A DNA stretch of 64,000 bases, taken from IMG/VR virus record IMGVR_UViG_3300042486_001111; one strand, 5' to 3'. This DNA is from a virus (taxonomy: Duplodnaviria > Heunggongvirae > Uroviricota > Caudoviricetes). Below, one piece after another: positions 5,006 through 63,351 of this stretch; position 1 is the stretch's first letter; each line of letters opens with the position of its first letter. The position numbers and the translations under genes were made by a program. Under the pieces are notes generated by a model. The model saw only the letters and a list, made by a program, of their open reading frames with translations, was not told the origin of the DNA and searched no databases.

Positions 5006-5014
5006 CGATTAAAA

Positions 5015-5548
5015 TTATTTACATATTGGAGCAACCTCAACTCCTAATTTTTGGAATATCTCTGATAACAATGAGTTTATTTTACCTTGTCCATATTCAC
5101 CCCTCATTAAGTCTTCAATAGAGTCAATAATTTCTTTAGAAACTACTGCACCACCCATTTTTTTAACAATAGGTGAAGCAATACTAATAATAGCCTTACC
5201 TAAACCACCATCAAATTTTCCGTATAAATCCTCCAACACTGCTGCAGGTGTAGATTTTGAATCTGCTGCCAATCTTTCTAAAAAATCTTTAATTTTTTTA
5301 GATGCGTCTTCACCAGCCGCCTTAGGGTTTTTACAGAACTCTTCTTCATTTTCTAAATTACTACTAAGTTGTTGTATTATACCTTCTAAACCAGCCCTAT
5401 ATTTTGTAACTAATTTAATTATACCTATGTTAACATCTTCTTCTTCCGTTAAATAAAATTTAGGAGTTTTAAAATCCTCTCTTTCACCCTCAACAATGAG
5501 AGATCTTTTTTTCATTAATTCATTTTTTTCGTTAATTCTTTTTTTCAT
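5015..5548 (-). CDS. hypothetical protein (177 aa)
   Basis: Intact ORF. Confidence 0.45.
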   Translation of the reverse strand: MKKRINEKNELMKKRSLIVEGEREDFKTPKFYLTEEEDVNIGIIKLVTKYRAGLEGIIQQLSSNLENEEEFCKNPKAAGEDASKKIKDFLERLAADSKSTPAAVLEDLYGKFDGGLGKAIISIASPIVKKMGGAVVSKEIIDSIEDLMRGEYGQGKINSLLSEIFQKLGVEVAPICK

Positions 5549-5571
5549 TTTATTACTATTAAATTTTCTTA

Positions 5572-6093
5572 TTATTCTGTAGGATAATCTATATACAATT
5601 CAACAATATCGTATGTTCTAATATTATTGAATAAATTGGATTCTTCTGTTAGTATCATATCTATGATCATTTCTTTTATTTCACCCTCTATTTCCCAACC
5701 AACATCACTATCCATAATTAGTTCATCAGTTATATTAATAGGTTTGGTTTCACCATCTTCTGTTAAATCTACAGTACCACCTTGTTCAATTTTAACATAT
5801 ATTCTAATCATTTCACCAAATGTACTATGTTCTAATGAAACAGATGCTTTAGTATATTGAACGAAATCTATTTCAGTTACTTTAAATAAAAATTCATATG
5901 ACCCTGAATATTGGTACGATGTAGTATCAAATAATTCACCCTCTAATTTTTTTAAACTATTAACCTCAAAACCTACGACACCGTTTAAGTATTCATCCTC
6001 AGATAAACCATATACATCTACAAAATCACTTCTATTTTCTAAAGCCCAAGATGGATTAGATAATTTACTCAGTATTTTTTTTATGTAGTTCAC
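5572..6093 (-). CDS. hypothetical protein (173 aa)
   Basis: Intact ORF. Confidence 0.45.
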   Translation of the reverse strand: MNYIKKILSKLSNPSWALENRSDFVDVYGLSEDEYLNGVVGFEVNSLKKLEGELFDTTSYQYSGSYEFLFKVTEIDFVQYTKASVSLEHSTFGEMIRIYVKIEQGGTVDLTEDGETKPINITDELIMDSDVGWEIEGEIKEMIIDMILTEESNLFNNIRTYDIVELYIDYPTE

Positions 6094-6132
6094 TTATAAT
6101 ATAATTTATATTAATAAATATAAGGAAGGTAT

Positions 6133-6166
6133 AAAAAAACCCCTTAAAGAGAGGTAAGGGTTATAG
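6133..6166 (-). terminator. intrinsic terminator (minus strand: cccttacc..aagggg + T7)
   Basis: Hairpin plus T-run immediately downstream of the gene 6180..6794. Confidence 0.55.
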
Positions 6167-6179
6167 GGTTATTTAACTA

Positions 6180-6794
6180 TCAAAAAGATAGTTCAATAGT
6201 TTTTAAATCGTATGTTGGGTTAATCAATGTAAAATTATTGGATCTAACTGTGGTTGACAAAACAATTCGTTTATGTCGATCGGTTTCTTCTTTATTAGTA
6301 TATAAATCATATACAAACACATCATAAATTTTGTTATAGTTAGGTAACAGTAAAAGATTAATATCAACAGGTTTACAAACCCTATCCTTAAAAATTAATT
6401 TAATTGATTTTTCCTTTATTACTTTATTCATATCGTTAACAAATAAATCCCAAACATATCTAAATTCATCATTACTCACACTCATTTCATCAACAAAATA
6501 TGTGTATACTTTAGAAATTACTTCTTTTACATACTCACTAAATTTTACTTTATTACTTTTATGTGGGTATGGGAATGACTTACTCCTATCTTCTGTTAAA
6601 TCGTGTCTATAAACCGTTTCACTTAAGGTTATAAGATTCATAACTGAACCCCATTCCACTAAATCTAAATTACTAAAGAATATGACATATATTTGTCCAT
6701 CATCACTACAACGATAATTATTTGGGGTACAATCAACCTCAACGTTAAAATTATGAAACTTATAAATTTTCTCTACAAACTTTCTATTAACCAT
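6180..6794 (-). CDS. hypothetical protein (204 aa)
   Basis: Intact ORF. Confidence 0.45.
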   Translation of the reverse strand: MVNRKFVEKIYKFHNFNVEVDCTPNNYRCSDDGQIYVIFFSNLDLVEWGSVMNLITLSETVYRHDLTEDRSKSFPYPHKSNKVKFSEYVKEVISKVYTYFVDEMSVSNDEFRYVWDLFVNDMNKVIKEKSIKLIFKDRVCKPVDINLLLLPNYNKIYDVFVYDLYTNKEETDRHKRIVLSTTVRSNNFTLINPTYDLKTIELSF

Positions 6795-6834
6795 ATAACA
6801 AATATAGTAAAAATTTGTTATATCGTCAAATGAA

Positions 6835-7488
6835 TTATTCGTAAAATGTTACGAAGTATTCTATAATACCTCCAGAAGAGTATCTCACAGGCATCACTTT
6901 CTTATCGTAACCAGGCATATTCTCATATTTTCCGATAACCTCTTCCTTACCAGCCTCACCACCATTCCATCTTCCTCTTCTTTCTAGTTTATAACTTTTA
7001 TCAGATGATTCTAAAGGAACACCAATAGTGAATTCGTTACCCGACTTTTCATAATCTATATTATTTATGTCTGGTTTTAATTTCTTTCCTTTAAGGTACT
7101 TGTTTATTTCATATGTTAAAACATTACATAACTGATGTATTGAATCACCAGTACCACCACCATTTTCACACTTACCGTGTTTTATTAAATACCCTGTGGT
7201 TGGTCCATCGTATGATACTGAAAAATAACTATCACTCTTAGATATAACAATTTTAGGTCTACCATTGGTTCCATTGAAATAAGATTCTCCACCACAATCT
7301 GCCCAACAGTTACAACTAGTACAACAACTTGGTTTAGCGGATTCAGATTCCTCACCTTCAACTGGTTCTTCTGTATCACCTTCATATGTTTCGATATCGT
7401 CAACTAAATTACCGAACATTCTCTCTTCAGTAAAAAGAGATTTCATCCTTTCGATAGTTTCGTTTAAATTTTTATTAATTCTTCCCAT
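6835..7488 (-). CDS. Cys-rich protein with family C-like N-terminus (..NLNETIERMKSLFTEE)
   Basis: N-terminal resemblance to family C; cluster CCTSCNCWADCGG. Confidence 0.5.
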   Translation of the reverse strand: MGRINKNLNETIERMKSLFTEERMFGNLVDDIETYEGDTEEPVEGEESESAKPSCCTSCNCWADCGGESYFNGTNGRPKIVISKSDSYFSVSYDGPTTGYLIKHGKCENGGGTGDSIHQLCNVLTYEINKYLKGKKLKPDINNIDYEKSGNEFTIGVPLESSDKSYKLERRGRWNGGEAGKEEVIGKYENMPGYDKKVMPVRYSSGGIIEYFVTFYE

Positions 7489-7577
7489 TTTTAGTTTTTA
7501 TATAAATATATTAGATTTAACAAAAATATCCCATCAAGAGGGGTTGGGGTGATTGAACAGTTCGGACGTACAAAGGT

Positions 7578-8180
7578 TTAACGGTAAACAGGATCCTTAA
7601 CACCAAATTCATATTTAAGAATAGAATCAATTTCATTTAGATAGTCACCCCATAAGTATTCAGATTCCTTTCTGGTTAAACCATAAGTGTTCTTACAATA
7701 ATCAATAAAAAATCCTGGATTAAAATGTCTGATTCTATTATACCGAAAATCTGAAAATGGTACCGATATCATAACGTCACCATAAGACGAATCATCCATT
7801 ATAGAAGTATCCGCCACCAAATACCTAAGAACCTTATCCATATAGTTAGAAACTTTCTCACCAAATATATCGTGATAGATATTCTCATTTATCGTATTAT
7901 CATATAATTTATTAGATATAATATTTTCGTAAGAACTGTATAAGTAATCAATCTCTTTATTATCTTTTATACCATAGGTATATTCTACATAAGATTTAAA
8001 AGATGGCATCCTACTACCTACCGCATTATTACCAAACCAACGTTTTGTAAGATAACCATCCATAACAGGAAAAGGTGTGATTACTATATCATCACCCTCA
8101 CCTTTATCGTATGTAATGGTACTATCCTTAACCAAACGACTAACGATTTTATTTAATAATATATACCTACCTTCGTCCAT
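7578..8180 (-). CDS. single-module member of the DKVVDFLVKDT / YGLT..E..YVW repeat family
   Basis: Contains NKIVSRLVKDSTITYD...PFP... and YGLTRKESEYLWGDY, matching the repeat unit of 9352..11235. Confidence 0.55.
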   Translation of the reverse strand: MDEGRYILLNKIVSRLVKDSTITYDKGEGDDIVITPFPVMDGYLTKRWFGNNAVGSRMPSFKSYVEYTYGIKDNKEIDYLYSSYENIISNKLYDNTINENIYHDIFGEKVSNYMDKVLRYLVADTSIMDDSSYGDVMISVPFSDFRYNRIRHFNPGFFIDYCKNTYGLTRKESEYLWGDYLNEIDSILKYEFGVKDPVYR

Positions 8181-8186
8181 ATAGAA

Positions 8187-8672
8187 TTACATCGATTTAG
8201 CCAACTTATCACTCACATCCAAAAAGAAGTGTGTTAATCCATCTTCCAAATCCTCATTTAAATTTACATAGTCATTACCATCATGTAAATCGAAATGCAT
8301 AAAGTTATAATCTGCGTCAGTATATATCTCAGCGTAATAATCTATTTCATCATCACCGTTCATAAAATTAAATATACCTATGTGTTTATATTCCTTAGGA
8401 TTGTCATCCCACTCCTCTGTGGACTCATAGGTGAACTTAACAGGTACTTCATCCACCTCACCAGAGAACTCGTAACCTGAGTCCATACTAAGTAAATTTT
8501 CGATATGTGGATCAACCTTACCCTTAGACATATTGTTTAAGAACATTCTTTCGTTGTCCGTTAACGAATCCATACCGTAATCATTAATCTTATCGAGAAT
8601 CTTATTTAGTAGTTCCTCATTCTCATTAATGAATAAATGTTTAACCTGATTTTCTGTTACAATTATTTTCAT
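8187..8672 (-). CDS. leader family D-like protein (MKIIVTENQVKHLF...)
   Basis: N-terminus resembles the MKIKLTETQYNRLL leaders. Confidence 0.5.
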   Translation of the reverse strand: MKIIVTENQVKHLFINENEELLNKILDKINDYGMDSLTDNERMFLNNMSKGKVDPHIENLLSMDSGYEFSGEVDEVPVKFTYESTEEWDDNPKEYKHIGIFNFMNGDDEIDYYAEIYTDADYNFMHFDLHDGNDYVNLNEDLEDGLTHFFLDVSDKLAKSM

Positions 8673-8684
8673 ATAATAATTTTA

Positions 8685-9167
8685 TTATTGTCTATTCATA
8701 TATTCCCCACTATAATATTTTTTGTATGCGTGTGGATTTCTTCTAATATGAACTTTACCTGTCTCAGGATTTCTTAATTTATCAAAATCTCTTCTAGTTC
8801 TTAACGGTTTAAAATTATCATTAGGTATTTCACTTCTTTTTAATTCTGTGAAATCATCAAACTCATAATCTTCCCATTCTCCAGAATACTTTGGGTCATT
8901 GTGAAATGACCAATGTCCTCGATTTGTCATATACCTACCATATGGGTTTGAACTTAACGGATCATACCAAGAGTATGTACTATCCCATCCTTCAGGATCC
9001 CATCTATCTCTGACAGGTTTGGGTTCGTACTTAAAATCTGGAAAAGGTAGATCTTTTTCAAGCCAAGGTCTATTCTGATTTTTTTGAGTAAAGTCATCAG
9101 ATTCGTTAATAACTCTTCTAACGATTCTTTGTAAATCTGATTCAGTTATTCTTACAATTTTTTTCAT
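8685..9167 (-). CDS. leader family A protein (MKKIVRITESDLQRIVRRVINE...)
   Basis: Start set at the internal Met (ATG at 9165-9167) that begins the conserved leader. The longer ORF (to 9281) would run through the terminator at 9200-9226. Confidence 0.6.
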   Translation of the reverse strand: MKKIVRITESDLQRIVRRVINESDDFTQKNQNRPWLEKDLPFPDFKYEPKPVRDRWDPEGWDSTYSWYDPLSSNPYGRYMTNRGHWSFHNDPKYSGEWEDYEFDDFTELKRSEIPNDNFKPLRTRRDFDKLRNPETGKVHIRRNPHAYKKYYSGEYMNRQ

Positions 9168-9199
9168 AATTATATTTTTATTTATAAATATTACGAAAA

Positions 9200-9226
9200 A
9201 TAAAAAAACCCACTCCGTAAGTGGGT
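9200..9226 (-). terminator. intrinsic terminator (cccact/agtggg hairpin + T7 on minus strand)
   Basis: aaaaaaacccactccgtaagtggg; the A-run becomes a T-run on the transcribed strand. Confidence 0.55.
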
Positions 9227-9351
9227 TGCCCATCTTTAGGTAATGGGAGTGTAAGAACAAGTCTCTAACCAAGTCCATCACAATTTTTGCACGGACACAA
9301 ATTCCATATTAGAGGGGCTGGGGTGATGGGACAGTTCGGTCGTACAACCGA

Positions 9352-11235
9352 TTAAAATCCCCAATCATAAGACTCCTTTAATTTCTTCATATAGTCGTAC
9401 CAAACAATTTTAGTCTCCTCACCAGTAAGCCCATAATTATTCTTACAGTAACTATCAAAATAAATTAACTGAGAATCTAACCCACTATAAGTATTATTTG
9501 TCGATAAACCAAATGTGTGTTCATAAACCGATTTAAATCCAGTCCTACCTGCGGAACTGCCTGGATAATAATAAGGAGGGTTAAACCAACTATTACCAAC
9601 TTCGGTATCCTTAAACAACCAATCAACAATCTTATCTAAATAAGCCTGTTTCTTATCGTCAGATTCATTTATGGGTTTAAGATCATACATTATAGATTCT
9701 TTATTGTACCTATCCTTAATAATTTTTTTATAGTTATTCCAAATGTATTTTGTCTCATCATAGTTTAACCCATAAGTATCCCTACAAGTTATCTGTATAT
9801 CCGAAGACATACCCCACGAAAGTTTATTTTTTAAATCATCAATAAAACTAGGTAACGGTTTACCATTCGGACCTATCTGAGAAAAAGGATATATTATAAC
9901 ACCCGTTTCATATCTAATTATAGTATCGTCAACAAACCACTTAAGAATCTTATCCAAATATTTTTGTTTCCTAACTTCAGATTCATTTAAAGAATTGTAT
10001 TTTTCAGATTCATATAAATCTTTCATAAACCCTTTCCACACATATTCAGTCTCATCTTCTGTAAGTCCATATTGTTCCTCACAGAATTTTTTAAAATAAT
10101 TCTTCTGAATTGCGAATTTTACAGATTCTACATCAGTAACGTATTTTAATAAACCAAACGTTTGTTTATAAAGAGAAGAAAGTGTGATACTATTTTCTGC
10201 GTACAAATTACCAGTTTTATATGGGGGTTCAAACCAAAGACTATTCACGTCTGTATCACTAACCAACCAATCAATAATCTTATTAAGGTAATTCTGTTTC
10301 TTATCATCAGATTCATAGATAGGTTCATTAGTAGGATCGTCACCAAACATAGTGTTCCTCATTATATCCTTATATTTCCCCCATACATAAGAAACATCTT
10401 TTATATATGTTATACCATATATTTCCTCAATGTATTCCATAAAACCACCTATAGGAATAACACTATCCTTATGAAAAAGAATTTTATGGAACGGTGTAGA
10501 ATTATCAGTATTTCGTCTAGTTGCAATCTTTTGAGTAAAAGGAAAAAATATTTCCCTTTCCTCATAATCCACTTTGGTATCCTTAACTAAAAAATCTACA
10601 ACCTTATCTAAGTACTTTATTTTTCTATCGTCAGACTCATTAAAGTAGAGGGGACTGACATTATTACCAAATACAATATTATACATAATAACCTTATATG
10701 TCTCCCAAACATAATCAATGTCCTCCGTTAAATTAATTCCATACATTTCCTCAATGTATTCCGTAAAACCATCAATAGGAATATATGTATCAAAAAGACG
10801 TTTATGAAAAGTTGTGAGATTACTACTACCTTGTCTAAGTGAGTTATTATATGTAAAAGGAAAAAATAACGTCTTATTATCATAATTTACTTTGGTGTCC
10901 TTAACTAAAAAATCAACAACCTTATCTAAAAAGTTTTTTCTTCTGTCATCAGACTCATTGATAGAACCACCTTTATTATTAATCTTTTCTTTAATCATAT
11001 CAATATAAATACCCCAAACATACAGAGATTCTTCATGAGTTAAACCATAGTTGTCTTTACAGTATTGAGAGTATCTACCCTTATGAAAAAAATAATCTAA
11101 ATTGGCGTCACTAATATATAATCTGTACGATGGAAAAAAAGGAAAATCTATATGGTTATCCCCATAGTCTATAATAGTGTCCTTAACCAGAAACTCTACC
11201 ACCTTATGTAAAAAATTTTTTCTATTGTTCTCCAT
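9352..11235 (-). CDS. 627-aa protein made of six tandem ~100-aa modules (DKVVDFLVKDT...FFPF...YGLT.E..YVW.Y)
   Basis: Six recognisable repeats, each starting R/K-K-x-x-[FY]L[DHN]K[VI][VI][DE][FW]LV[KS]DT and ending [YE]YGLT..E..YVW..Y. Confidence 0.6.
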   Translation of the reverse strand: MENNRKNFLHKVVEFLVKDTIIDYGDNHIDFPFFPSYRLYISDANLDYFFHKGRYSQYCKDNYGLTHEESLYVWGIYIDMIKEKINNKGGSINESDDRRKNFLDKVVDFLVKDTKVNYDNKTLFFPFTYNNSLRQGSSNLTTFHKRLFDTYIPIDGFTEYIEEMYGINLTEDIDYVWETYKVIMYNIVFGNNVSPLYFNESDDRKIKYLDKVVDFLVKDTKVDYEEREIFFPFTQKIATRRNTDNSTPFHKILFHKDSVIPIGGFMEYIEEIYGITYIKDVSYVWGKYKDIMRNTMFGDDPTNEPIYESDDKKQNYLNKIIDWLVSDTDVNSLWFEPPYKTGNLYAENSITLSSLYKQTFGLLKYVTDVESVKFAIQKNYFKKFCEEQYGLTEDETEYVWKGFMKDLYESEKYNSLNESEVRKQKYLDKILKWFVDDTIIRYETGVIIYPFSQIGPNGKPLPSFIDDLKNKLSWGMSSDIQITCRDTYGLNYDETKYIWNNYKKIIKDRYNKESIMYDLKPINESDDKKQAYLDKIVDWLFKDTEVGNSWFNPPYYYPGSSAGRTGFKSVYEHTFGLSTNNTYSGLDSQLIYFDSYCKNNYGLTGEETKIVWYDYMKKLKESYDWGF

Positions 11236-11542
11236 ACTTTGATATTAATAAAGTTGCCAATTTTATTCCGTACATATCCATAACTCTACGACACTCATCT
11301 TCTGTTAACCCATAATATCCCACAAGGTATTTAATGTCATCGGTACCGATTAACCATCCACTATGTAACCACTCCTTTAGTTCATCTTCCGTATAATAAA
11401 ATTCTAATTCCTCAATACCATACATTGGAAAATTCACACCTATGTGATCTCTGTTGGAAGGTTTTGTCCAGTGTTTGGTTCTCTTAACTAAATCGTCAAC
11501 AACATAATTGAAATATCTTCCTAATTTATCCTCCATATACAT
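11222..11542 (-). CDS. single-module member of the same repeat family (YVVDDLVKRTK...YGLTEDECRRVMDMY)
   Basis: Shares the module; overlaps the upstream gene by 14 nt. Confidence 0.5.
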   Translation of the reverse strand: MYMEDKLGRYFNYVVDDLVKRTKHWTKPSNRDHIGVNFPMYGIEELEFYYTEDELKEWLHSGWLIGTDDIKYLVGYYGLTEDECRRVMDMYGIKLATLLISKYGEQ

Positions 11543-11569
11543 AATATAAATATTGAAATATTTGGAAAC

Positions 11570-11852
11570 GAAAAAATTCCTGGAAAATTTTGAAGGGTAC
11601 CCCTAACCCCACCAGAAATGGGTGTTGTTTGTGGGGGATATAAAATAAAAAAAGGTTCATTTCTAAACCTTAAAATTTCCTGGAAAATTTGTGGACAACA
11701 TCACCTACCCCCTTTACGTCAAAACACCCCCAGAGGGAAGGGGGGTGATGTAGGGGTACCTGAGGGGGGACTCCCCTCTAGGGGAGAGGTATTGTATATA
11801 TTACTGTACACAAAGTACCCCCCTCCCCCTACGGACTATATATATGGTTTAG
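11570..11852 (-). ncRNA. candidate structured non-coding RNA (GC-rich island downstream of an orphan promoter)
   Basis: A TTGACA-17-TATATT promoter is followed by a 4-codon mini-ORF (ATG AAA AAT ACC TAA). After it lies a G/C-rich region, unusual for this genome, with duplicated ttcctggaaaattt boxes and palindromes (gggtacccc, tcccctctagggga). No plausible CDS. Confidence 0.25.
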
Positions 11853-11858
11853 GTATTT

Positions 11859-11887
11859 TTCATACTACAAATATAAGGATAAAATAT
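11859..11887 (-). promoter_or_regulatory. sigma70-like promoter TTGACAttgt-17-TATATT (orphan)
   Basis: Minus strand reads TTGACATTGTAATATTTTATCCTTATATTTGTAGTATG. It is nearly identical in architecture to the promoters at 15809..15837 and 29513..29541. Confidence 0.45.
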
Positions 11888-12171
11888 TACAATGTCAAAT
11901 TATAGGGAATAAAAAAAGGGATAATTTTTTTCGTTTTACAGATCACACTGTTACGATGATTATATTATCCCTTCTTATGTGATGAAGTGTAACCATATCT
12001 TTTGTTCAATACGTTACGTCCCTTCATCTAATCTACGTTGTCCAGTGATGACAAACAATTGTTCATCCATAATCACCTTTTCCTTCCATAGGGTGGGGAG
12101 GAAGGAAGGAACCCCGTAGATTAATATATCAAACAACTATGATACAATATTAACTATATTAAATTAAAAAG

Positions 12172-13044
12172 TCAATACCCATATCTCTTTTTTACACTCT
12201 CTTTTCTAGTATAATATTCAGAGGATCTTAAATACTGATCCAACCCTCTACCATTACTATCTATATAGTCTATAAGTTTTCCATCACCATATGTAAACCA
12301 TTCTTTATATTTAGTACCAGAGTTAGGATAATTACTTTCCTTATATATTACATTACCATCATCATCGTATTCATCAATAAAATAATTACCGTTTCTAGAT
12401 TCCATATATCTAGATTGTCCATATATATCTGTAACGTATATGGCGTCTACTACATCCTTCACCACTAAGTCCTCATTAAATACTTTAGATATAATACCAT
12501 CCCATTCATCTCTTGGTATCCCTAATGATTCTAGATCATACCTAAATGGTGGTTTCAATGTATCTATTATTTTATCTATTAGTTTATCACTATACACAGA
12601 CTCATTGAGATCATAATCTGGATCCTTTACATCAGATATTTTACCCTCAGAGTTTTCATAGTATATAGATTCACCCTTATCATTAAATATTGATTTCTCC
12701 CAATATTCATTTCCTTTACCATCTGTTTTAAATAGATATGTTACATTATCGTTCTTATCGAATTCTCTGATCACATAGTCACCACCTTCACCTTCATAGT
12801 ATAATATATTAGTTCCCTTATCTGTTACTATACCACCTGTTATTTGTTCATCACGATAGAATGAAGACACTAATACATTTTGATTATATAATGTATAAAA
12901 CACACCTCTCCATTCATCCTCTGGTACACCTAATCTTTGTAGATCCAAAAAGTATGGTGGACGTATTACCTTAGATAGTTTATCATAATATCTTTGTTTA
13001 TAATCATTCGATTCCTTAATGATTCCTTTAATTGTTACCTTCAT
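12172..13044 (-). CDS. protein with two PPY..DL.SLG.P..EW modules and MORN/YwqK-like Gly-Tyr repeats
   Basis: YYDKLSKVIRPPYFLDLQRLGVPEDEW and LIDKIIDTLKPPFRYDLESLGIPRDEW; YYEGEGGDY...YYENSEGK repeats. Confidence 0.5.
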   Translation of the reverse strand: MKVTIKGIIKESNDYKQRYYDKLSKVIRPPYFLDLQRLGVPEDEWRGVFYTLYNQNVLVSSFYRDEQITGGIVTDKGTNILYYEGEGGDYVIREFDKNDNVTYLFKTDGKGNEYWEKSIFNDKGESIYYENSEGKISDVKDPDYDLNESVYSDKLIDKIIDTLKPPFRYDLESLGIPRDEWDGIISKVFNEDLVVKDVVDAIYVTDIYGQSRYMESRNGNYFIDEYDDDGNVIYKESNYPNSGTKYKEWFTYGDGKLIDYIDSNGRGLDQYLRSSEYYTRKESVKKRYGY

Positions 13045-13104
13045 TTTTTTATAAAATATATTAATAAATATTTGGTAGTGTCAAAAATTCTTCGTACCTT
13101 TGTT

Positions 13105-13287
13105 ATGTTGGTGAGGGTATCCTCGAAACGGGTCAGAGAAACAGGTTCTTCTCTAAGAGGGTATACTCCGACCTGTCTTATATTTTTTTATAAGGGAAAC
13201 TTTAGACCAACCGACCTTTGATCCCTTCATACTATATATCTATATGTACGCCTGTTTCGGTATTACCACCAACAATACAAAGGTAGT
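13105..13287. repeat. intergenic element bounded by a 19-bp imperfect inverted repeat (tacctttgttatgttggtg / caccaacaatacaaaggta)
   Basis: The IR arms flank ~145 bp containing further complementary blocks (cgaaacgggtcagagaaacagg ... cctgtttcgg). Confidence 0.4.
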
Positions 13288-13313
13288 AATAAAAAACGAC
13301 ATACACAAATAAA

Positions 13314-14306
13314 TTAATAAGTTTTTTTTAATCTATGAAAGTTCTCCATAAGGAATACTCTATACTGATCCCATAATGAATTAATGGTTTGTGGATCCAA
13401 TCCATAAGTTTCAATACAGTAATGAGTAAATGGTTTAGGTGGTTCATCTATAAACATTATAATCTCTATTACGGTATGTACTCTTTTACTCTTATAACTA
13501 ATAGATACTGGTTGATCTAAGAATGGTACACGTATTAAATCTTCTCCTATCTGATATGTATCATCCTTTAAGAACTGTAATACCTTATCAACAAAACGAT
13601 CCATTCTCTCATCTGATTCATTAATATTAAACTTCTTTTGAAGTATTCTATTTTCAAATACATTCTCATAGATATATTTTAATATCATATCAGTTAAAGT
13701 GATAGATACATATTGTCCACCATCTGGTAATCCTTCAGTCATTAACTGTATACAACATCTGAATATATAATCAGTATACCTATTAGAAAATGATTTAAAA
13801 TCTTCACGTGGATCACCATCCTCCAACCATACATTTAAACCTAACAAACCTTCTCTAGTTCTACCGAATTCATTAATGTATAATATATCTACATTATCAC
13901 CAAAACTATGTACCAACCCTATTGAGTCAATGATCCTATTATATACTCTCATAAAGAATTTATAATGTCCCTCACTGTTGAAACCGTATATTCTTAATGT
14001 CTGTCTCGGATCACTTTCGGATGGTTCTAAATTACCGTGTAGATATAATTCATTTATACTACCACTAAAATCATAATTAATTGAATCACTATATCTATAC
14101 CATAGTTCTTTACACTCTACTAAAGATAACCCATACTGATCCTTACAGTATTCATAGAAGTTTTTATGTAGTGGTAAATAGAAATTTGTTTGTAACGCAT
14201 ACAAAGGTTGATTAAAAGGATATACTATTCTCAGATCCTTCTTATCTATCTGTGTATCCTTAATAATCGTATCTAATACTCTCTCTATATATCTCTCTCT
14301 ATTCAT
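13314..14306 (-). CDS. two-module member of the DKV..DT / YGL repeat family
   Basis: RYIERVLDTIIKDTQ...YGLSLVECKELWYRY and RFVDKVLQFLKDDTY...YGLDPQTINSLWDQY. Confidence 0.55.
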   Translation of the reverse strand: MNRERYIERVLDTIIKDTQIDKKDLRIVYPFNQPLYALQTNFYLPLHKNFYEYCKDQYGLSLVECKELWYRYSDSINYDFSGSINELYLHGNLEPSESDPRQTLRIYGFNSEGHYKFFMRVYNRIIDSIGLVHSFGDNVDILYINEFGRTREGLLGLNVWLEDGDPREDFKSFSNRYTDYIFRCCIQLMTEGLPDGGQYVSITLTDMILKYIYENVFENRILQKKFNINESDERMDRFVDKVLQFLKDDTYQIGEDLIRVPFLDQPVSISYKSKRVHTVIEIIMFIDEPPKPFTHYCIETYGLDPQTINSLWDQYRVFLMENFHRLKKTY

Positions 14307-14770
14307 ATAATATAAATATAGAGAACCATATTAAAATGAAATATTATCTCCGTGTTCCCAATCTACTAATTCATCTTCCATAGTATTAAATATACGGTGT
14401 GGTAAAAAGTGGTAAGGTACAGTTTTTTGTTAATAACTTTTATACTAAAAAGTTGATTTTTACGTTTTTTTTCCGTATATTTGTAATAGGTTTTTTGTAA
14501 ATTTCAGAAAAAATATAGGGTAAATCTACGGTCAACGCAATGTTTTCTATCCCTTTATGATTAAACGTTAACCAAATTCCCACAATTTACCACCGTAGAC
14601 ATCGATTATTAAAATAACCGTATTTTAATGAGGCAAACACATTTTATACTAAAGGTACAGTTTATAGATTTAATTGTGGGGGTTTCTGGTACACTGTATT
14701 AAACGATCTTTTAAAATATATTATAGTATACCATACAGATAATATAGTGTCTCAAATAGTCTTATTCGAA

Positions 14771-15031
14771 CTATAAACCTATGTACATTTCTTTGTTATT
14801 ATCCAACACTATTTTAGTACATAGTTGTCCACAAAAATCTATTTCTTCTACGGATACAATTTTATTTATACCACTTAGATATTTTGTTTTATAGGATTCT
14901 TTTTCTATAAGTCTACGTTTTCTTACACCACTTAATTTATCGGTATCAATGTCTTTACCGTTCAATACGAATCCATCGAAGTAGTGTCCTTCCCATTTAT
15001 AGTCATCTCCGACTTTTATATTTTTATTCAT
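14771..15031 (-). CDS. hypothetical protein (86 aa) adjacent to the HNH gene
   Basis: Intact ORF set apart by non-coding flanks. Confidence 0.4.
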   Translation of the reverse strand: MNKNIKVGDDYKWEGHYFDGFVLNGKDIDTDKLSGVRKRRLIEKESYKTKYLSGINKIVSVEEIDFCGQLCTKIVLDNNKEMYIGL

Positions 15032-15079
15032 ATACTTTTTTATTTTATCGTAATCCCCGTTACTGTAATTTCTATTACG

Positions 15080-15802
15080 TTAATTTATTTTATCTCTCTT
15101 TACACACCTATTAACATAAGAACATAATGGTTGTAAATTACTATGGTGATTTAATCTAATGATATCTTCCACACACTTACCAGATGATACAGGTATTATA
15201 TGATCTAAATCCCACCCATATCTTTCTTCTCCATTATACTTACCATAGTTATCCCAATTCATCCATTCTTCCCATTGTGATTCTATTTGTGTTTTAAATT
15301 CTTCGTATGTACAACCTAATATCTTATATGATTTAGTTTTTTTAGTGTAACCTTTTAGTCTAAAGGATTGTTTTAATAAGTTTCTAATATTAGTAGTAAG
15401 TTTATAAAGTGAATCAGATTGTCTCCTTACTTTATTATATTCTTTTATTTTATCTTTATTATTTTCCCTGTATTCTTTATTATATTCTTTCATTTTATCT
15501 TTATTATTTCCCCTGTATTCTTTACCATATTCTTTTACTTTATCTTTATTGTTCTGTTTATATTCTTTATCATATTCTTTTAATTTATCTTTATTGTTCT
15601 GTTTATATTCTTTATCATATTCTTTTATTTTATCTTTATTATTTTCCCTGTATTCTTTTTTACCTTTTTTTATTTTATCTTTATTATTTTCATAGTATTC
15701 TTTCTTGTATTCTTTACTACATAGTCTACATTCAGACCTACCTTTATTAAACTCAGATAATTCTTTTTCTTCTTTACATTTGGTACATACTTTCTTTTCC
15801 AT
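15080..15802 (-). CDS. HNH endonuclease with N-terminal zinc ribbon and 8 tandem 11-aa KEYxxNNKDKxKEY repeats (likely homing endonuclease)
   Basis: CTKCK...CRLC near the N-terminus; repeats; DHIIPVSSGKCVEDIIRLNHHSNLQPLC resembles an HNH motif. Confidence 0.75.
   Translation of the reverse strand: MEKKVCTKCKEEKELSEFNKGRSECRLCSKEYKKEYYENNKDKIKKGKKEYRENNKDKIKEYDKEYKQNNKDKLKEYDKEYKQNNKDKVKEYGKEYRGNNKDKMKEYNKEYRENNKDKIKEYNKVRRQSDSLYKLTTNIRNLLKQSFRLKGYTKKTKSYKILGCTYEEFKTQIESQWEEWMNWDNYGKYNGEERYGWDLDHIIPVSSGKCVEDIIRLNHHSNLQPLCSYVNRCVKRDKIN
15410..15750. repeat. tandem ~33-bp DNA repeats (coding, inside the HNH gene)
   Basis: Repeating tattctttattatattcttttattttatctttattatt units seen directly. They give a spurious poly-Tyr/Leu antisense ORF (15409..15750 +). 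Confidence 0.6.
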
Positions 15803-15808
15803 ACCACA

Positions 15809-15837
15809 ATTATAATAATTTCATATTACAATGTCAA
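15809..15837 (-). promoter_or_regulatory. consensus sigma70 promoter TTGACA-17-TATAAT, 6 nt before the ATG (leaderless)
   Basis: Minus strand reads TTTTTGACATTGTAATATGAAATTATTATAATTGTGGTATG(gaaaag). Confidence 0.5.
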
Positions 15838-15982
15838 AAACGAATGATACCCCTTTTGTCCGATCATCCCAACCCTTCTTGTGGGTTTTACTTTACATAT
15901 TATAAGGATTTCATTTTACATATTATAAAAAAACCCCTACAGTAATGTAGAGGTTCAAATATTCTTCATATGTATTTATATC

Positions 15983-16447
15983 TTATCGTCTTTGGAAGTC
16001 TTTCTTTTTTCTAATGGTATTAAATATTTCGTATATAACACCATCATCAAATTCCTTTGATTCATTTATATAATTGGCAACCTCTTCATTATAACCGTAA
16101 TGTCCCCTCTCATATTCTGTTACCTCAATCTCTAGTAAATTACCATCACTGATTACTTTATCTATAACTTTTAAACCTGTCAAATATAAATTAATATCTA
16201 CATATAATTCACCTTCCTCACCATAATAATCTTTTGTACCTTCATCCATTATGAAATCTATGATGTATCGTTCTATTATATCTCTCGGTAGTTCACCTAT
16301 TTTAAGTAATATATTTGTAAGTGACATTTGTGTTGTCTCCATAAAATAATACAACCCAAACTTTTTTATTCTAGATAAAAATAAATTCTTATCAACCCCA
16401 TCGGATTCCTCCTTCAATATTCTTTTTATATTTTCTTTTAGGTTCAT
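15983..16447 (-). CDS. leader family B protein (MNLKENIKRILKEE...)
   Basis: Conserved leader. Confidence 0.6.
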   Translation of the reverse strand: MNLKENIKRILKEESDGVDKNLFLSRIKKFGLYYFMETTQMSLTNILLKIGELPRDIIERYIIDFIMDEGTKDYYGEEGELYVDINLYLTGLKVIDKVISDGNLLEIEVTEYERGHYGYNEEVANYINESKEFDDGVIYEIFNTIRKKKDFQRR

Positions 16448-16457
16448 ATTCTTTTAA

Positions 16458-16826
16458 TTACACATCTTTAATCTCATCACCAATAACATCTAATGTTTCT
16501 TTGTTTGTTGCGTTTTTTATCACCTTTGGTGCAACTCCTTCATCATACGCCTCTTTCCATCTTTTTGCACATAAACACCATCTATCCCCACTTTTTAACA
16601 TAGATAAATCATTTCCTTTTGACTTTGTAAACTCAAGAAATCGATCATCAACTTCACTACAAACTGTGTGTGTTCCTTTATCAGAACTACCTGTCTTACA
16701 ATATCCATCTCTGTAATATCCTGTCATTGGGCTTTCTCCACATATTTGTAATGGTTCGTCTAATATATTCATATCAGATATGTCCATCATTTCTATAATT
16801 CTATGTATTTGTTCTTGTAGATTCAT
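16458..16826 (-). CDS. leader family C protein (MNLQEQIHRIIEMM...), Cys-rich
   Basis: Conserved leader; five Cys residues spread over the C-terminal half (Cys-rich). Confidence 0.6.
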   Translation of the reverse strand: MNLQEQIHRIIEMMDISDMNILDEPLQICGESPMTGYYRDGYCKTGSSDKGTHTVCSEVDDRFLEFTKSKGNDLSMLKSGDRWCLCAKRWKEAYDEGVAPKVIKNATNKETLDVIGDEIKDV

Positions 16827-16827
16827 A

Positions 16828-17154
16828 TTATGACATACTTCTAATTATTTGATTATACTTGTGAACCCCTAATCCTTTTTGTATTCCGTCCCAATTTTCT
16901 TTCCACCCTATTAATTTTTCTTCAGGTAATTCTTCCCATTCATACCATGCATTTGTATTTTCAGGTGTAACAATTGATATTAAATCAGGGTTCCATTCAC
17001 CACCTGTTTGAGTACCTTCAGGTGTATGAACTATTTTAAATGAATTACCATAGTTTTCATCCCAATCAATATATAATCTTTCTATATAATCATTTGATTC
17101 GGTTATTAAACCCATCATAGATTTTATTCTATGTATTTGTTTTTGTAGATTCAT
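16828..17154 (-). CDS. leader family C protein (MNLQKQIHRIKSMMGLITES...)
   Basis: Start set at the conserved leader Met; 1-nt gap to the upstream gene. Confidence 0.55.
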   Translation of the reverse strand: MNLQKQIHRIKSMMGLITESNDYIERLYIDWDENYGNSFKIVHTPEGTQTGGEWNPDLISIVTPENTNAWYEWEELPEEKLIGWKENWDGIQKGLGVHKYNQIIRSMS

Positions 17155-17155
17155 A

Positions 17156-17572
17156 TTACCAAATACTTTTACCACTTCCTTTATAAATTAATTTTATACA
17201 GTTAGACGGTATATTCTCAAATGTTACTATGTGATGTTCGTAATCACCCCCTTCAAAATGTGTATCCCTATACCAAGTAACTCCCGCACATTCTGTATCT
17301 ATTAACCATATATCATCATCGTAACCATCATCAAACATATCTTCTTTATTTAGAGAATCTGTAGCAAAAATTGATGGTTGACATTCCACATCACCACCTA
17401 CATAACTTTGATAACATTCTCCCACCGATGTTTGTAAACCAGTAAGTTTTATATTATCTCTCCACACAGGATTTGACTGGTGAACAACGAACTTATTAGG
17501 TGTCATTTCAGTACCTTTAGGTGAGTATAGTTCTTCCTTTATTATTCTTCTTATTTGTTCTTGTAGTTTCAT
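17156..17572 (-). CDS. leader family B protein (MKLQEQIRRIIKEE...)
   Basis: Start set at the conserved leader Met. Confidence 0.55.
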   Translation of the reverse strand: MKLQEQIRRIIKEELYSPKGTEMTPNKFVVHQSNPVWRDNIKLTGLQTSVGECYQSYVGGDVECQPSIFATDSLNKEDMFDDGYDDDIWLIDTECAGVTWYRDTHFEGGDYEHHIVTFENIPSNCIKLIYKGSGKSIW

Positions 17573-17573
17573 A

Positions 17574-18011
17574 TTAATTATAAAATTCAACATTAAGTTT
17601 TGTATCACCCCACAAAGGATTATTAGAATCTAAATGGTTCTGTAATAAATATAATGCCGATAATCTATGTGCCCCATCTTGTAGTGTTCCATTAACTATT
17701 ATTATTGGGGGAAGATTGTATATTGATTCAGGGTTCTTTTTTAAGTAATCTGCATATTCCATAACCTTTTTTGTTACACCCCAATCATATTCTTTGTTTT
17801 GAACATCCTGTAAAACTTCTTTGTAGTATGGAATATAATCTAACATCTCAATTAATTCATTTAATGTAAGTTGTTCCGTATATTTGTCCATACTTTCTTT
17901 TTCTTCGTCTGAAATTGGTTTACCACTTGACATACCAAGTTGTGGAATGTTTTCAGATATAACTCCCATCATTGATTGTATCCTTGATATTTGTTCTTGT
18001 AGATTTTTCAT
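17574..18011 (-). CDS. leader family C protein with possible ParB-like nuclease motif (LQDGAHRLSALYLL)
   Basis: MKNLQEQISRIQSMMGVISE leader; a DG.HR motif suggests a ParB/sulfiredoxin-like fold (weak). Confidence 0.5.
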   Translation of the reverse strand: MKNLQEQISRIQSMMGVISENIPQLGMSSGKPISDEEKESMDKYTEQLTLNELIEMLDYIPYYKEVLQDVQNKEYDWGVTKKVMEYADYLKKNPESIYNLPPIIIVNGTLQDGAHRLSALYLLQNHLDSNNPLWGDTKLNVEFYN

Positions 18012-18012
18012 A

Positions 18013-18636
18013 TTATATTAGTTTATAACCTGATTTTATCTTCCACATATTTTTTTCTGGTACTTCTGTTGGTGGGATGTAATCTTCATCTGGACCCAAT
18101 CTTACTGCCAAACCTTTACTAACTAAATCTTCCCACATATTAAAACCATCATACTGACCTGTTTGTGTATTATATAAAAATATAAAGTCAGATGTGAACA
18201 TATCAAAGTTCTCAAAATTATCTTTTAACCATTGGTTGAAATCAATATAGAATTTTCTCATTATACCTTTACCTCTATACTTAGGATAGATATCTACTTT
18301 TTGTATTTGTAGTGAAAATAAACCTGTCATACTATCTTTATAAACAAAGGCAACAAATCTACCAACCTTATCATTTGTAGTATTATCAATAATATCTATT
18401 ATAATTTGGTTTGATGCATCAGTACCTCTACTATAACGAAGTGAAAAGTCATCAAAAGATACTACTGTTTGTATTTTTTTTAAGAAGTTGTGTAGTTCTT
18501 CCCCTTTAACAAATCTACTTATAGATGATAATAGTTTACCGTATATACTACTCTCATCTTTCATTTCTTCAGATTTAACTTCTTCAGTTAAAAGTTCTTC
18601 CCTTAATATTCTTTTTATGTTTTCCTGTAAATTCAT
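18013..18636 (-). CDS. leader family B protein with possible GNAT acetyltransferase fold
   Basis: MNLQENIKRILREE leader; IYPKYRGKGIMRKF resembles GNAT motif A. Confidence 0.5.
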   Translation of the reverse strand: MNLQENIKRILREELLTEEVKSEEMKDESSIYGKLLSSISRFVKGEELHNFLKKIQTVVSFDDFSLRYSRGTDASNQIIIDIIDNTTNDKVGRFVAFVYKDSMTGLFSLQIQKVDIYPKYRGKGIMRKFYIDFNQWLKDNFENFDMFTSDFIFLYNTQTGQYDGFNMWEDLVSKGLAVRLGPDEDYIPPTEVPEKNMWKIKSGYKLI

Positions 18637-19298
18637 TATGTAAGTTTAAATATAACCTCATCAACTAATTCGTCTGTTGATTTACTTTCCCCATTTTCAT
18701 TACGTGGATTGATGGTTGTTTTACCTTTATAAAATTCCCTAATACTATTAATAGATTGTTGTATTTCTTCATCATTCGTATCATCCTCCAATTCAGGTTG
18801 ACCCATTTCTTTTGCCCTTTTGATTCTCCTATCTTTTATAAATTGAATATATGGTCCATCATCTTCAGGTGTTGTTGGTAATCCGAAAACAAATAGATTT
18901 GGTAAATCTTCTAATAAGTCAGGATTTTTTATACTGTCCCCACCTATATCAAAAATTACTTTTTCATTACCATATTTATCTAATAGTTTAGTAAGAACAC
19001 ATCTTTTATATTCATCATTCGATTCACCGTAATTATGACCATCTTCAGTTCTTGTAATATTAACTTCCACACCAGGTTCATCCTTACACAAATTTTCATA
19101 TTCTTCACTACCTTCCATTTTATCCACATCAATACGTGATATACCCAATTTTTTAGATAAGGCTTCTGCGGTGGTAGATTTACCACTACCTGCAGTTCCA
19201 ATAAAGACAATTGGTTTATTTTCATAAGACTTCTGTTCTTCTGTAAGAAGTCCCATCATTTGTTTCATCCTATTAACTTCTTCGTTTAAATTTTTCAT
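18636..19298 (-). CDS. leader family C protein, P-loop nucleotide kinase-like
   Basis: MKNLNEEVNRMKQMMGLLTEE leader; Walker A IVFIGTAGSGKST. Confidence 0.6.
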   Translation of the reverse strand: MKNLNEEVNRMKQMMGLLTEEQKSYENKPIVFIGTAGSGKSTTAEALSKKLGISRIDVDKMEGSEEYENLCKDEPGVEVNITRTEDGHNYGESNDEYKRCVLTKLLDKYGNEKVIFDIGGDSIKNPDLLEDLPNLFVFGLPTTPEDDGPYIQFIKDRRIKRAKEMGQPELEDDTNDEEIQQSINSIREFYKGKTTINPRNENGESKSTDELVDEVIFKLT

Positions 19299-19361: not shown

Positions 19362-19799
19362 TTACTTCAATGGTGGAAGATTGTCATATTCATCCTGAGC
19401 ATTACCAAAATCAATTGCCCCTTGTATTAATCTGGTTATTCCATTATAGTCATTAGTTGATAATACCATACTGTTTGTTCCTTTAACTTCTTCTAAATAG
19501 TTAATACTTTTTCCCATTGGGAATTTAAGGAAAATAGCAAGTGATACTTTAGATGGGTCGTTCACTGATTTTGTTGCAACCATCACTTTAAATCCCCTTT
19601 TTGGAAGGGAATAAATTTCCATACCATCAATGTTTTTAACATAATTAAACCCATGTTTTACCGTAAATAAATCACTTAATAATTTATTATTGATTTGACT
19701 AAAATCGGAAGATTGTTCACCACCTTCTTCGTTTTCTCGAATAACCCTTCTAACGATTCTATTTAAATCTGATTCCGTAAGTTTTATAATTCTTTTCAT
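19362..19799 (-). CDS. leader family A protein (MKRIIKLTESDLNRIVRRVIRE...)
   Basis: Conserved leader. Confidence 0.6.
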   Translation of the reverse strand: MKRIIKLTESDLNRIVRRVIRENEEGGEQSSDFSQINNKLLSDLFTVKHGFNYVKNIDGMEIYSLPKRGFKVMVATKSVNDPSKVSLAIFLKFPMGKSINYLEEVKGTNSMVLSTNDYNGITRLIQGAIDFGNAQDEYDNLPPLK

Positions 19800-20020: not shown

Positions 20021-20335
20021 TCACCAAAAGGTAATTATATTATCACTACTAGTTTGTCTCCATTGACCTTTACCTGTGGGTTTTTTAAGTTTATCCGATT
20101 CAGGATATTCATTATTATCATATGTTGCCAACATTTTACCTTTACTAGAATTTGGAAGCATCTCATAAAAGGTTAATTTGGTATCATCTTTTTCCCAAAG
20201 TCCTACACCATATCCTGGGTTCCATTTTGATGGTGCGGGTATTTTCATCACCCACTGATTGGGGTCACCTTCATTGATAACTCGTTTAACAATATTAACC
20301 AAATCTGATTCTCTAAGTTTAACTATTCTTTTCAT
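20021..20335 (-). CDS. leader family A protein (MKRIVKLRESDLVNIVKRVINE...)
   Basis: Conserved leader. Confidence 0.6.
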   Translation of the reverse strand: MKRIVKLRESDLVNIVKRVINEGDPNQWVMKIPAPSKWNPGYGVGLWEKDDTKLTFYEMLPNSSKGKMLATYDNNEYPESDKLKKPTGKGQWRQTSSDNIITFW

Positions 20336-23388: not shown

Positions 23389-23901
23389 TTAATTAAAGTT
23401 TTTAGTGTAAAAATCTTTTTCAGATATTGTCATATCAGACTCATACTCACCTAACAGTACTCTCAATTCATCAACCTCTTTCCAATATATGGACCCTTCA
23501 CTTTCTGGTGAATAATCATTATCGACTAAGTACTGAACAATTGTGTTTGGTTCGGTGGTAATAAAACCGTGTGCAAATCCTTTGGGAACAAATAGTTCTA
23601 AATTGGGTACCATAATGAATGTATACAATTTCATATAATCAGGTGATTCTGATCTTATGTCAATAATAAAATCCATTATTCTTCCAGTGATTACTTTAAT
23701 GAGTTTGGATTGTGCCTTATCACCTATTTGGAAATGTAATCCTCTAAGTGTGTATTGGTTAGGGTTGAAACTAACGTTACTTTGTACCCAATTCTTTTGT
23801 AACTCTGAATTATCTGAATTATCATAATTTAAAGGTAGTGGTGCGAATACACCTCTATTATCCTCAAAAACTTTATTTTCTATCAAATAAGGTTGTTCCA
23901 T
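23389..23901 (-). CDS. rmlC: dTDP-4-dehydrorhamnose 3,5-epimerase-like cupin (RmlC family)
   Basis: RGLHFQ...KLIKVITGRIMDFIIDIR...FVPKGFAHGF...YW matches RmlC motifs. Confidence 0.75.
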   Translation of the reverse strand: MEQPYLIENKVFEDNRGVFAPLPLNYDNSDNSELQKNWVQSNVSFNPNQYTLRGLHFQIGDKAQSKLIKVITGRIMDFIIDIRSESPDYMKLYTFIMVPNLELFVPKGFAHGFITTEPNTIVQYLVDNDYSPESEGSIYWKEVDELRVLLGEYESDMTISEKDFYTKNFN

Positions 23902-24481: not shown

Positions 24482-24548
24482 AGTTGTTTAGATTTAATTA
24501 AACAAATATAAGGACAATTTTTTAAATAATCAAACTAAAAGACAAATA

Positions 24549-29506: not shown

Positions 29507-29512
29507 ACGACA

Positions 29513-29541
29513 AATATAGAGATTATATTTAACAATGTCAA
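29513..29541 (-). promoter_or_regulatory. sigma70-like promoter TTGACAttgt-17-TATATT, 6 nt before ATG
   Basis: Minus strand reads TTTGACATTGTTAAATATAATCTCTATATTTGTCGTATG. Confidence 0.5.
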
Positions 29542-29570: not shown

Positions 29571-29575
29571 CGTAT

Positions 29576-30928: not shown

Positions 30929-30943
30929 AACTTTTATGCTATA

Positions 30944-63345: not shown

Positions 63346-63351
63346 GGTTTG

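Follow-up and report, generated by a model that had tools for sequence, protein, structure and literature searches.

The promoters described here lie in a 64,000-nucleotide (nt) stretch of the IMG/VR virus record IMGVR_UViG_3300042486_001111 (Caudoviricetes), hereafter the window, where an HNH endonuclease gene is preceded at 15809..15837 (minus strand) by a promoter-like element that ends 6 nt before its ATG. This element and its relatives are probably host-polymerase promoters of the Bacteroidota sigma-A type; six of them would fire on an ATG, giving mRNAs without a leader. They belong to an uncultured large phage with a likely Bacteroidota host. A scan of the window for TTGACATTGT-N13-TATAWT returned exactly three matches (11870..11898, 15809..15837, and 29513..29541), each of them on the minus strand, with 0 expected from 100 dinucleotide-preserving shuffles, and each copy is followed by the six nt TGTNGT and then by ATG. 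In minus-strand reading, the promoter of the HNH gene (15080..15802) is TTGACATTGTAATATGAAATTAT TATAAT TGTGGT ATG, that of gene 29279..29506 is TTGACATTGTTAAATATAATCTC TATATT TGTCGT ATG, and that of an orphan locus is TTGACATTGTAATATTTTATCCT TATATT TGTAGT ATG. The three near-identical promoters before ATG that the initial annotation had reported are therefore real; its coordinates for the third, 11859..11887, were off by 11 nt. It had also held that conservation of the -35 region goes beyond the hexamer. The four copies of the 10-mer TTGACATTGT in the window are all on the minus strand and only in promoter-like positions (the fourth at 57769), and the 10-mer is kept in relatives.

The putative elements match the Bacteroidota -33/-7 promoter in every sequence feature tested. 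The consensus of the primary sigma factor in this phylum, with TTTG at -33 and TAnnTTTG at -7, comes from B. fragilis, F. johnsoniae, B. thetaiotaomicron, and F. psychrophilum (PMC6847099, PMC7366714, PMC9723704); in Flavobacterium johnsoniae, the -7 box is T-12 A-11 T-8 T-7 T-6 G-5 and is separated by 4-5 nt from the transcription start (PMC6847099). Positions -10 and -9 of this element are not G. The optimum spacing between the two boxes was taken from the window and from Tenacibaculum phage pT24. The upstream regions of about 97 minus-strand open reading frames (ORFs) showed recurrent TAnnTTTG, a TTG 20 nt further 5', A-rich leaders, and no Shine-Dalgarno (SD) sequence. TTG-N20-TAHHTTTG occurs at 14 sites on the coding strand against 0.8 +/- 0.9 expected, and when sites near ORF starts were anchored on the -7 box alone, T, T, and G were found at -35, -34, and -33 in 22, 21, and 17 of 30 sites, respectively (background of G, 19%). 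TTG at -35..-33 is present in all six sites with leaderless geometry, whose -7 boxes read TATATTTG at 11868, 29511, and 6799, TATAATTG at 15807 and 38670, and TACTTTTA at 59537. Since TTG and TAnnTTTG are common to most other promoters of the window, and since SD motifs are avoided, the trio belongs to a Bacteroidota-type family, in which the three loci are the best-matching members, with an unusual TTGACATTGT extension, of at least 20 promoters. In the strongest members the -33 box is extended to TTGAC(A/G)TTGT, and therefore the sigma70 consensus is matched too.

According to the initial annotation, the host RNA polymerase would use canonical -35/-10 recognition; that is, the trio would be sigma70 promoters (TTGACA/TATAAT) of a proteobacterial- or Firmicutes-type polymerase, and the TG after the hexamer would have no role. 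The hexamer score (TTGACA + TATAAT, 17 +/- 1 nt) is indeed 12/12, with a 17-nt spacer, at 15809..15837 and 11/12 at 11870..11898 and 29513..29541. The same 31-nt pattern precedes SD leaders in IMG/VR, and in Methylophilales phage Melnitz, which has a proteobacterial host, TTGACA-N16-18-TAnnnT occurs 11 times against 1.9 expected. In the window, however, the latter pattern is barely enriched (7 vs 3.2), loose sigma70-like matches are not enriched (79 vs 77.5 expected in 5000..17000), and most other promoters have only TTG at -35..-33 and TAnnTTTG, without TTGACA or TATAAT. Moreover, TTG at -7..-5, which a -10 hexamer does not need, is kept in six of the eight TTGAC sites and in relatives. The sigma70 hexamers thus fit but fail to account for all of the conservation, SD motifs are depleted rather than enriched, as in phages of Flavobacteriia, and the nearest cultured relatives infect Flavobacteriia. 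A canonical sigma70 system is therefore an unlikely explanation.

If the trio consists of sigma-A-type promoters, then TTG would occupy -35..-33 and, after a 20-nt spacer, TAnnTTTG would occupy -12..-5, the match to TTGACA-17-TATAAT being coincidental. As 4 nt separate the G at -5 from the ATG, transcription should begin on the A of ATG, giving a leaderless mRNA with a 5'-terminal AUG; sigma70 numbering puts the start at the same A. Translation would presumably proceed by the 70S/IF2-dependent route known for leaderless mRNAs. Offset statistics were obtained from the 22 coding-strand TTG-N19-21-TAHHWTTG sites. The ATG lies at offset 4 from the -7 box in five of them against 0.58 expected (P=2e-4), the remaining distances spread over 11-21 nt, and A is at the predicted +1 in 14. 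A sixth offset-4 site has a weaker box. The three sites of identical geometry beyond the trio were located by a simple mismatch scan and had been absent from the initial annotation (the last three below).

15807..15837, minus strand: HNH promoter, TTGACATTGT, 20 nt after TTG, TATAATTG, tggt, ATG at 15802..15800; it also fits TTG-N20-TAnnWTTG, with A replacing T at -8
29511..29541, minus strand: promoter of a 75-amino-acid (aa) gene, TTGACATTGT..TATATTTG, tcgt, ATG at 29506..29504
11868..11898, minus strand: orphan promoter, TTGACATTGT..TATATTTG, tagt, ATG at 11863..11861
6799..6829, minus strand: promoter of gene 6180..6794, TTGACG-17-TATATT, that is, TTGACG..TATATTTG, ttat, ATG at 6794..6792
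38670..38700, minus strand: promoter of gene 38246..38665, TTGATT.., TTG-N20-TATAATTG, tttt, ATG at 38665..38663
59537..59567, minus strand: weaker promoter of gene 58876..59532, TTG-N20-TACTTTTA, caat, ATG at 59532..59530

The layout was compared in related contigs from IMG/VR, among them one of 166 kb. Both boxes and the 4-nt distance are preserved in these contigs, whereas the 4 nt themselves and the spacer vary, as follows.

75-aa gene: TATATTTG-TCGT-ATG in the window, TATATTTG-ACAT-ATG and TATAATTG-TTAT-ATG in relatives
139-aa gene: TATAATTG-TTTT-ATG in the window, TATAATTG-TAAT-ATG and TATTATTG-TAAT-ATG in relatives
204-aa gene: TATATTTG-TTAT-ATG in the window, TTGACGTTGT..TATATTTG-TTAC-ATG in relative L004 (61% aa identity)
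HNH gene, syntenic in the 166-kb relative: TATAATTG-TGGT-ATG in the window, TATAATTG-TGGA-ATG in the relative, with a nearly identical promoter (one spacer base differs, plus t->a at -1)

The initial annotation had treated TGT.GT as one conserved element. The TG completes the -7 box TAnnTTTG, and the four bases after it vary between homologous promoters (TCGT/ACAT/TTAT, TGGT/TGGA, TTTT/TAAT, and TTAT/TTAC); therefore, TGT.GT is two things. The strongest test of the leaderless layout is provided by the 218-aa gene 58876..59532: of its 79 homologous loci in IMG/VR (65-91% aa identity), 45 have the ATG preceded by a TAnn[AT]TT[GA] box at a distance of exactly 4 nt. These 45 loci have more than 20 distinct upstream sequences, in which the 4 nt and the spacer have freely diverged; the other loci have leadered arrangements. 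Across IMG/VR, TTGACATTGT-N13-TATAWTTG is found at 71 distinct sites, where an ATG offset of 4 is the joint most frequent (11 sites), and the offset-4 sites include three or four lineages unrelated to this phage. The leaderless reading is thus supported by geometry and conservation, and the earlier expectation that transcripts begin at the ATG would hold to within about 1 nt.

These observations also bear on the possibility that the promoters are real but that expression comes mainly from longer, leadered read-through transcripts or from another start codon, the adjacent ATG being incidental. The genes are tightly packed on one strand, the hairpins upstream of 6829 and 15837 are weak, and the orphan has an ATG at +1 without a real ORF, all of which would suit this reading. 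Against it, the offset-4 ATG is enriched and the offset is kept while the 4 nt vary. In all six leaderless candidates, the ATG is the first possible start of its own ORF, and the N-termini agree with those of homologues, leadered ones included. Furthermore, strong intrinsic terminators lie directly upstream of two promoters, those at 29541 (hairpin at about 29544..29572) and 11898; at the HNH promoter the strong terminator is about 95 nt upstream (15931..15956), and only a weaker hairpin is adjacent. Overall, expression by read-through or from another start codon appears improbable.

The extension of the -33 box was considered separately. The leaderless layout is found in four of six sites with a -33 box of the TTGAC type and in one of 16 others (Fisher p=0.009), so the TTGAC(A/G)TTGT extension is associated with leaderless sites. 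It probably reflects either duplication of a promoter module or selection for very strong initiation. Selection for strong promoters could offset weak leaderless translation, and a regulator binding site is another candidate for the TTGACATTGT extension. The TTGACATTGT sites might form a separate regulatory class under a phage-encoded factor (activator, repressor, or sigma-like) acting at the extended -33 region. Apart from the association itself, this is suggested by the confinement of the 10-mer to promoter positions, by its conservation in relatives while the spacer varies (the L004 counterpart of the 6829 promoter reads TTGACGTTGT), and by pT24, where no TTGACA-type sites were found. On the other hand, the window yielded no candidate factor, the element lacks palindromic symmetry, few sites are available, and the -7 box is of the ordinary host type. 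The orphan and HNH promoters are 82% identical over 44 nt (repeat D4), which fits simple duplication. A dedicated phage factor is unlikely. A somewhat different and tentative idea, which we hold to be rather unlikely, is that TTGAC(A/G)TTGT promoters firing on ATG form a distinct, dual-consensus (sigma70 + sigma-ABfr) class of Bacteroidota phages that is coupled to leaderless translation. If so, the mobile HNH gene and a few early genes could be expressed independently of the SD-free, leader-dependent initiation rules of the host, and such a class might allow expression across host phyla or under phage-induced changes of translation.

The host of the phage was approached through its translation signals and protein matches. 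Starts were scored as SD-like when GGAG, GAGG, or AGGA occurred at -20..-4.

Window: 3% of starts, background 10%
Related contig piece L001: 6%, background 12%
Flavobacterium phage immuto: 3-5%, background 17-19%
Flavobacterium phage elemo: 8%, background 13%
Tenacibaculum phage pT24: 3%, background 6%
Methylophilales phage Melnitz: 52-58%, background 8-11%
Prochlorococcus phage P-SSM2: 26%, background 12%

The value for the window agrees with those for immuto, elemo, and pT24 and differs from those for Melnitz and P-SSM2. The absence of SD sequences, which the initial annotation had proposed as a check, is thus supported. As a positive control, pT24 is enriched in the promoter motif (TTG-N20-TAHHTTTG, 9 vs 0.5; N19-21, 16 vs 2.1). 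At the DNA level, only the HNH gene and the tRNAs matched known phages, and the best cultured-phage match of the HNH gene is elemo. Immuto is the closest cultured relative for two proteins of the window: the 218-aa phosphoesterase is 68% identical to its counterpart there and at most 41% to anything else, and a 521-aa protein matches immuto and Melnitz equally. The best matches of the peptidase and of the RNA ligase are in Cellulophaga phages and in pT24, respectively. Taken together, these signals make a Bacteroidota host likely, and within this phylum the host would probably belong to the Flavobacteriia.

Several points weigh against the interpretation as Bacteroidota-type leaderless promoters. 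Two leaderless promoters (15807 and 38670) have A at -8 instead of the nearly invariant T, and TTGACA has not been described as part of the -33 element in Bacteroidota. Many of the TTGACATTGT-N13-TATAWTTG sites in IMG/VR precede SD leaders and are evidently classical sigma70 promoters. Immuto has 0 TTG-N20-TAnnTTTG sites and no enrichment, and therefore the motif is not universal among Flavobacterium phages; elemo has only two N19 sites. The closest genome match (70%) of a GuaC-like gene is on a contig of a Prochlorococcus single-cell assembly, and the tRNAs of the window resemble cyanophage tRNAs. The host assignment is indirect, and the transcription start point is predicted from promoter geometry. 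Finally, leaderless mRNAs are uncommon in those Bacteroidota that have been examined: 5' untranslated regions shorter than 10 nt make up 3.7% in B. thetaiotaomicron, leaderless mRNAs make up 5.5% in F. psychrophilum, and a survey of Pribnow-box-like signals detected leaderless genes in only one of 37 Bacteroidetes/Chlorobi genomes, where according to its authors they may be missed (PMC3160421). A full-text literature search found no paper on leaderless genes in Bacteroidetes phages.

The SD statistics argue against a cyanobacterial host (26% in the P-SSM2 control vs 3% in the window). The genome-contig search with the GuaC-like protein also matched a Magasanikbacteria metagenome-assembled genome, and both this and the Prochlorococcus match are uninformative on the host. 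The gene in question, of the GMP reductase/IMPDH family (36412..37488, minus strand), has its 70% copy on a 15-kb contig of Prochlorococcus sp. AG-409-L21 (QCKH01000017.1), followed there by a homologue of the window gene 23389..23901; this contig is probably phage DNA in the single-cell assembly.

Two annotated starts in cultured phages deserve mention. In the phosphoesterase gene of immuto (MW353176.1, 21337..22017), the ATG corresponding to residue 1 of the window protein and of about 80 homologues is found 30 nt downstream of the annotated start, which may be too far upstream. At 30922..30960 of pT24, a TTG-N20-TACATTTG site is followed after 5 nt by an in-frame ATG, 36 nt into the annotated gp262; the internal ATG may be the near-leaderless true start of this gene in a cultured Flavobacteriaceae phage.

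The leaderless set would comprise the HNH endonuclease gene, three small genes of unassigned function, and the phosphoesterase-like gene, with the orphan (a 4-codon ORF and a structured RNA) as the sixth transcript.

15080..15802, minus strand: HNH/endonuclease VII-like gene, 240 aa, predicted leaderless (phrog_1035)
29279..29506, minus strand: 75-aa gene, predicted leaderless (phrog_17752, weak DUF5595 match)
6180..6794, minus strand: 204-aa gene, predicted leaderless, promoter 6799..6829
38246..38665, minus strand: 139-aa gene, predicted leaderless, promoter 38670..38700
58876..59532, minus strand: 218-aa phosphoesterase-like gene, predicted leaderless, promoter 59537..59567
11640..11863, minus strand: predicted orphan transcript, 4-codon ORF, about 200 nt of non-coding sequence, and a terminator-like hairpin near 11645..11665

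Most proteins of the window, those of the leaderless genes included, received no function from Pfam or PHROGs, and no recognisable repressor is among the leaderless genes. The N-terminus of the HNH protein, MEKKVCTKCKEE, aligns with MKVCSKCKEE of the elemo HNH protein, and distant leadered homologues of the 75-aa gene start about one residue or less from the same N-terminus. The HNH gene also contains seven 45-nt tandem repeats (15385..15789) that encode 15-aa units EY(K/R)xNNKDKxKEYxK; its 186-aa homologue in the 166-kb relative is without this expansion.

The third locus of the trio had been called an orphan. No ordinary gene is present there, so this much stands, while the promoter would drive a 4-codon ORF and then a conserved non-coding region, and the locus is best described as a conserved non-coding transcript. 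The ORF is ATG AAA AAT ACC TAA (11849..11863) and encodes MKNT or MKNI in relatives. The predicted transcript opens with AUGAAAAAUACCUAA, followed by a stretch rich in G-runs and C-runs with several long hairpins. The region is 88-96% identical in two relatives, with the promoter and about 220 nt downstream conserved, and the promoter is kept in L001 and L003, where only its spacer differs. In the two relatives, none of the predicted stems varies and the changes fall in a hairpin loop, the three near-identical sequences being too alike for covariation. The fold is not clearly better than that of shuffled sequences (z = -1.66), and Rfam searches (gathering; E<=1) gave no match for the transcript. 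Since the orphan has an ATG at +1 without a real ORF, an ATG at +1 alone is no proof of a gene.

A second orphan promoter, TTGACT..TAATATTG (12145..12175, minus strand), stands before about 235 nt without a convincing ORF (11905..12175). This stretch ends in a long terminator hairpin (GGGATAAT...ATTATCCC and a T-run, about 11908..11968), which directly precedes the orphan promoter at 11898. L001 and L003 have conserved both the stretch and its promoter.

The rest of the promoter family is leadered or ordinary. The initial annotation had listed weaker relatives at 44366..44394, at 57741..57769, and in the spacer of the tRNA array. The first two belong to the same promoter family but are leadered; the third, near 63055..63085 (TTGACA-17-GTAATT), was dropped, as it is without a usable -10/-7 box.

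44364..44394, minus strand: leadered member, TTGACATTTT..TATTTTTG, 11 nt before the start codon of the DUF3310 gene 44125..44352, with a predicted leader of about 7 nt
57739..57769, minus strand: leadered member with TTGACATTGT and a poor -7 box, TAACATTA, 21 nt to the ATG of gene 57517..57717, predicted leader about 17 nt
62254..62284, minus strand: representative ordinary member, TTG-N20-TATATTTG, followed after 17 nt by the ATG of gene 62000..62236
54914..54944, 40967..40997, 38227..38257, 34130..34160, 32665..32695, and 24503..24533, minus strand: ordinary members like 62254..62284
1310..1340, 1893..1922, and 38708..38737, plus strand: ordinary members like 62254..62284
63835..63865, minus strand: TTG-N20-TATAATTG site, the probable promoter of the tRNA array 62755..63426, which lies downstream of it

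Behind the last site, the tRNA array (62755..63865 with the site, minus strand) has five genes (Met, Arg, Leu, Glu, and Asp). The promoter-like site is separated from the first tRNA by about 400 nt of non-coding sequence that is relatively rich in GC, and the array includes a 170-nt spacer (62983..63152); Rfam gave no match.

Other recurrent elements were noted in the window. A convergent pair of promoter-like TTG-N20-TACCTTTG sites, 13072..13102 (plus strand) and 13278..13308 (minus strand), lies between genes 12172..13044 and 13314..14306; both sites have similar sequence downstream (T[TA][AT]TGTTGGTG..GAAAC.GG), and the pair may represent overlapping small transcripts. A second upstream string on the minus strand, (A)TATATTTATA(A/T)ATAAAATATT..AT-ATG, has a box that ends in A, not G, and leaders of about 17-20 nt. 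It is found upstream of 231..503, 3402..4262, 6835..7488, 19362..19799, 20021..20335, and 39444..40043, and either represents a variant class of promoters or arose as a by-product when genes were duplicated. The C-rich element ATCAYCCCARCCCYTCT has three intergenic copies (7537..7553 and 9311..9327, minus strand; 15863..15879, plus strand) against 0.03 expected. The copy beside the HNH promoter has the opposite orientation and is a plus-strand terminator-like hairpin.

Among the neighbouring genes, a run of small proteins (15983..19298, minus strand) has the common N-terminal motif M(N/K)LQE(Q/N)I(H/R)RI..(M/E)M, which also heads several ORFs in the 166-kb relative; these proteins seem to form a family of paralogues that share an N-terminal module. 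The minus-strand genes 9352..11235, 11222..11542, 12172..13044, and 13314..14306 encode large proteins of repeated modules of about 120 aa, ESDD(R/K)K.(F/Y)LDK(V/I)VD(F/W)LVKDT...YG(L/I)T..E...VW..Y, with no Pfam or PHROG match.

If the assignment is correct, the earlier polymerase and host inference for the window has to be revised. Promoters and translation signals alike indicate a Bacteroidota host, a useful clue in the case of an uncultured phage group (about 166 kb) that lacks a close cultured relative. It also appears that, in a Bacteroidota-type phage, promoters placed directly on start codons can make up a sizeable share, and that this layout may be kept across a clade. The genes would form a compact set of predicted natural leaderless genes in a phylum where initiation, with no SD and a sequestered anti-SD, is still being clarified. 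In practical terms, gene callers tend to mis-set leaderless starts, and in Flavobacteria the 31-nt modules could serve as strong expression parts that need no leader.

In comparison with known systems, the window promoters resemble the sigma-ABfr promoters of Bacteroidota in the -7 box at -12..-5 from the predicted start, the TTG at -35..-33, 20 nt upstream, the AT-rich spacer, the preference for A at +1, and the SD-less genome. Unlike these, the strongest members have the -33 box TTGAC(A/G)TTGT, several carry A in place of the T that is almost invariant at -8 in F. johnsoniae, and the predicted leaders are 0, about 7, or 11-17 nt, whereas the medians in Bacteroidota hosts are 24-32 nt. Three sites also resemble sigma70 promoters of the TTGACA-17-TATAAT type in hexamers and spacing (11/12 to 12/12), but in the window conservation runs into TTG at -7..-5, the rest of the family is without ACA, and the translation signals differ from those of typical sigma70/SD hosts.

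Phage pT24, a cultured jumbo phage of Flavobacteriaceae, is similar in its enrichment of TTG-N19-21-TAHHTTTG, its low share of SD-like starts, and its low GC content (28%). In contrast to the window, pT24 is without TTGACA-type -33 boxes, and at its annotated starts the distance from G to ATG is 12-32 nt, with no leaderless class. As in known leaderless mRNAs, the candidates have AUG throughout as the start codon, located at the predicted 5' end with no room for a leader or SD sequence; a leaderless phage mRNA from another phylum is that of lambda cI from PRM. Leaderless mRNAs of Bacteroidota hosts differ in that here about one in five promoter-proximal genes (5/22 sites) would be leaderless, as predicted from the sequence, and in that the layout is conserved across a phage clade (45/79 loci of one gene). 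Overall, these are known kinds of promoter and of leaderless arrangement seen in a new setting, with no new mechanism.

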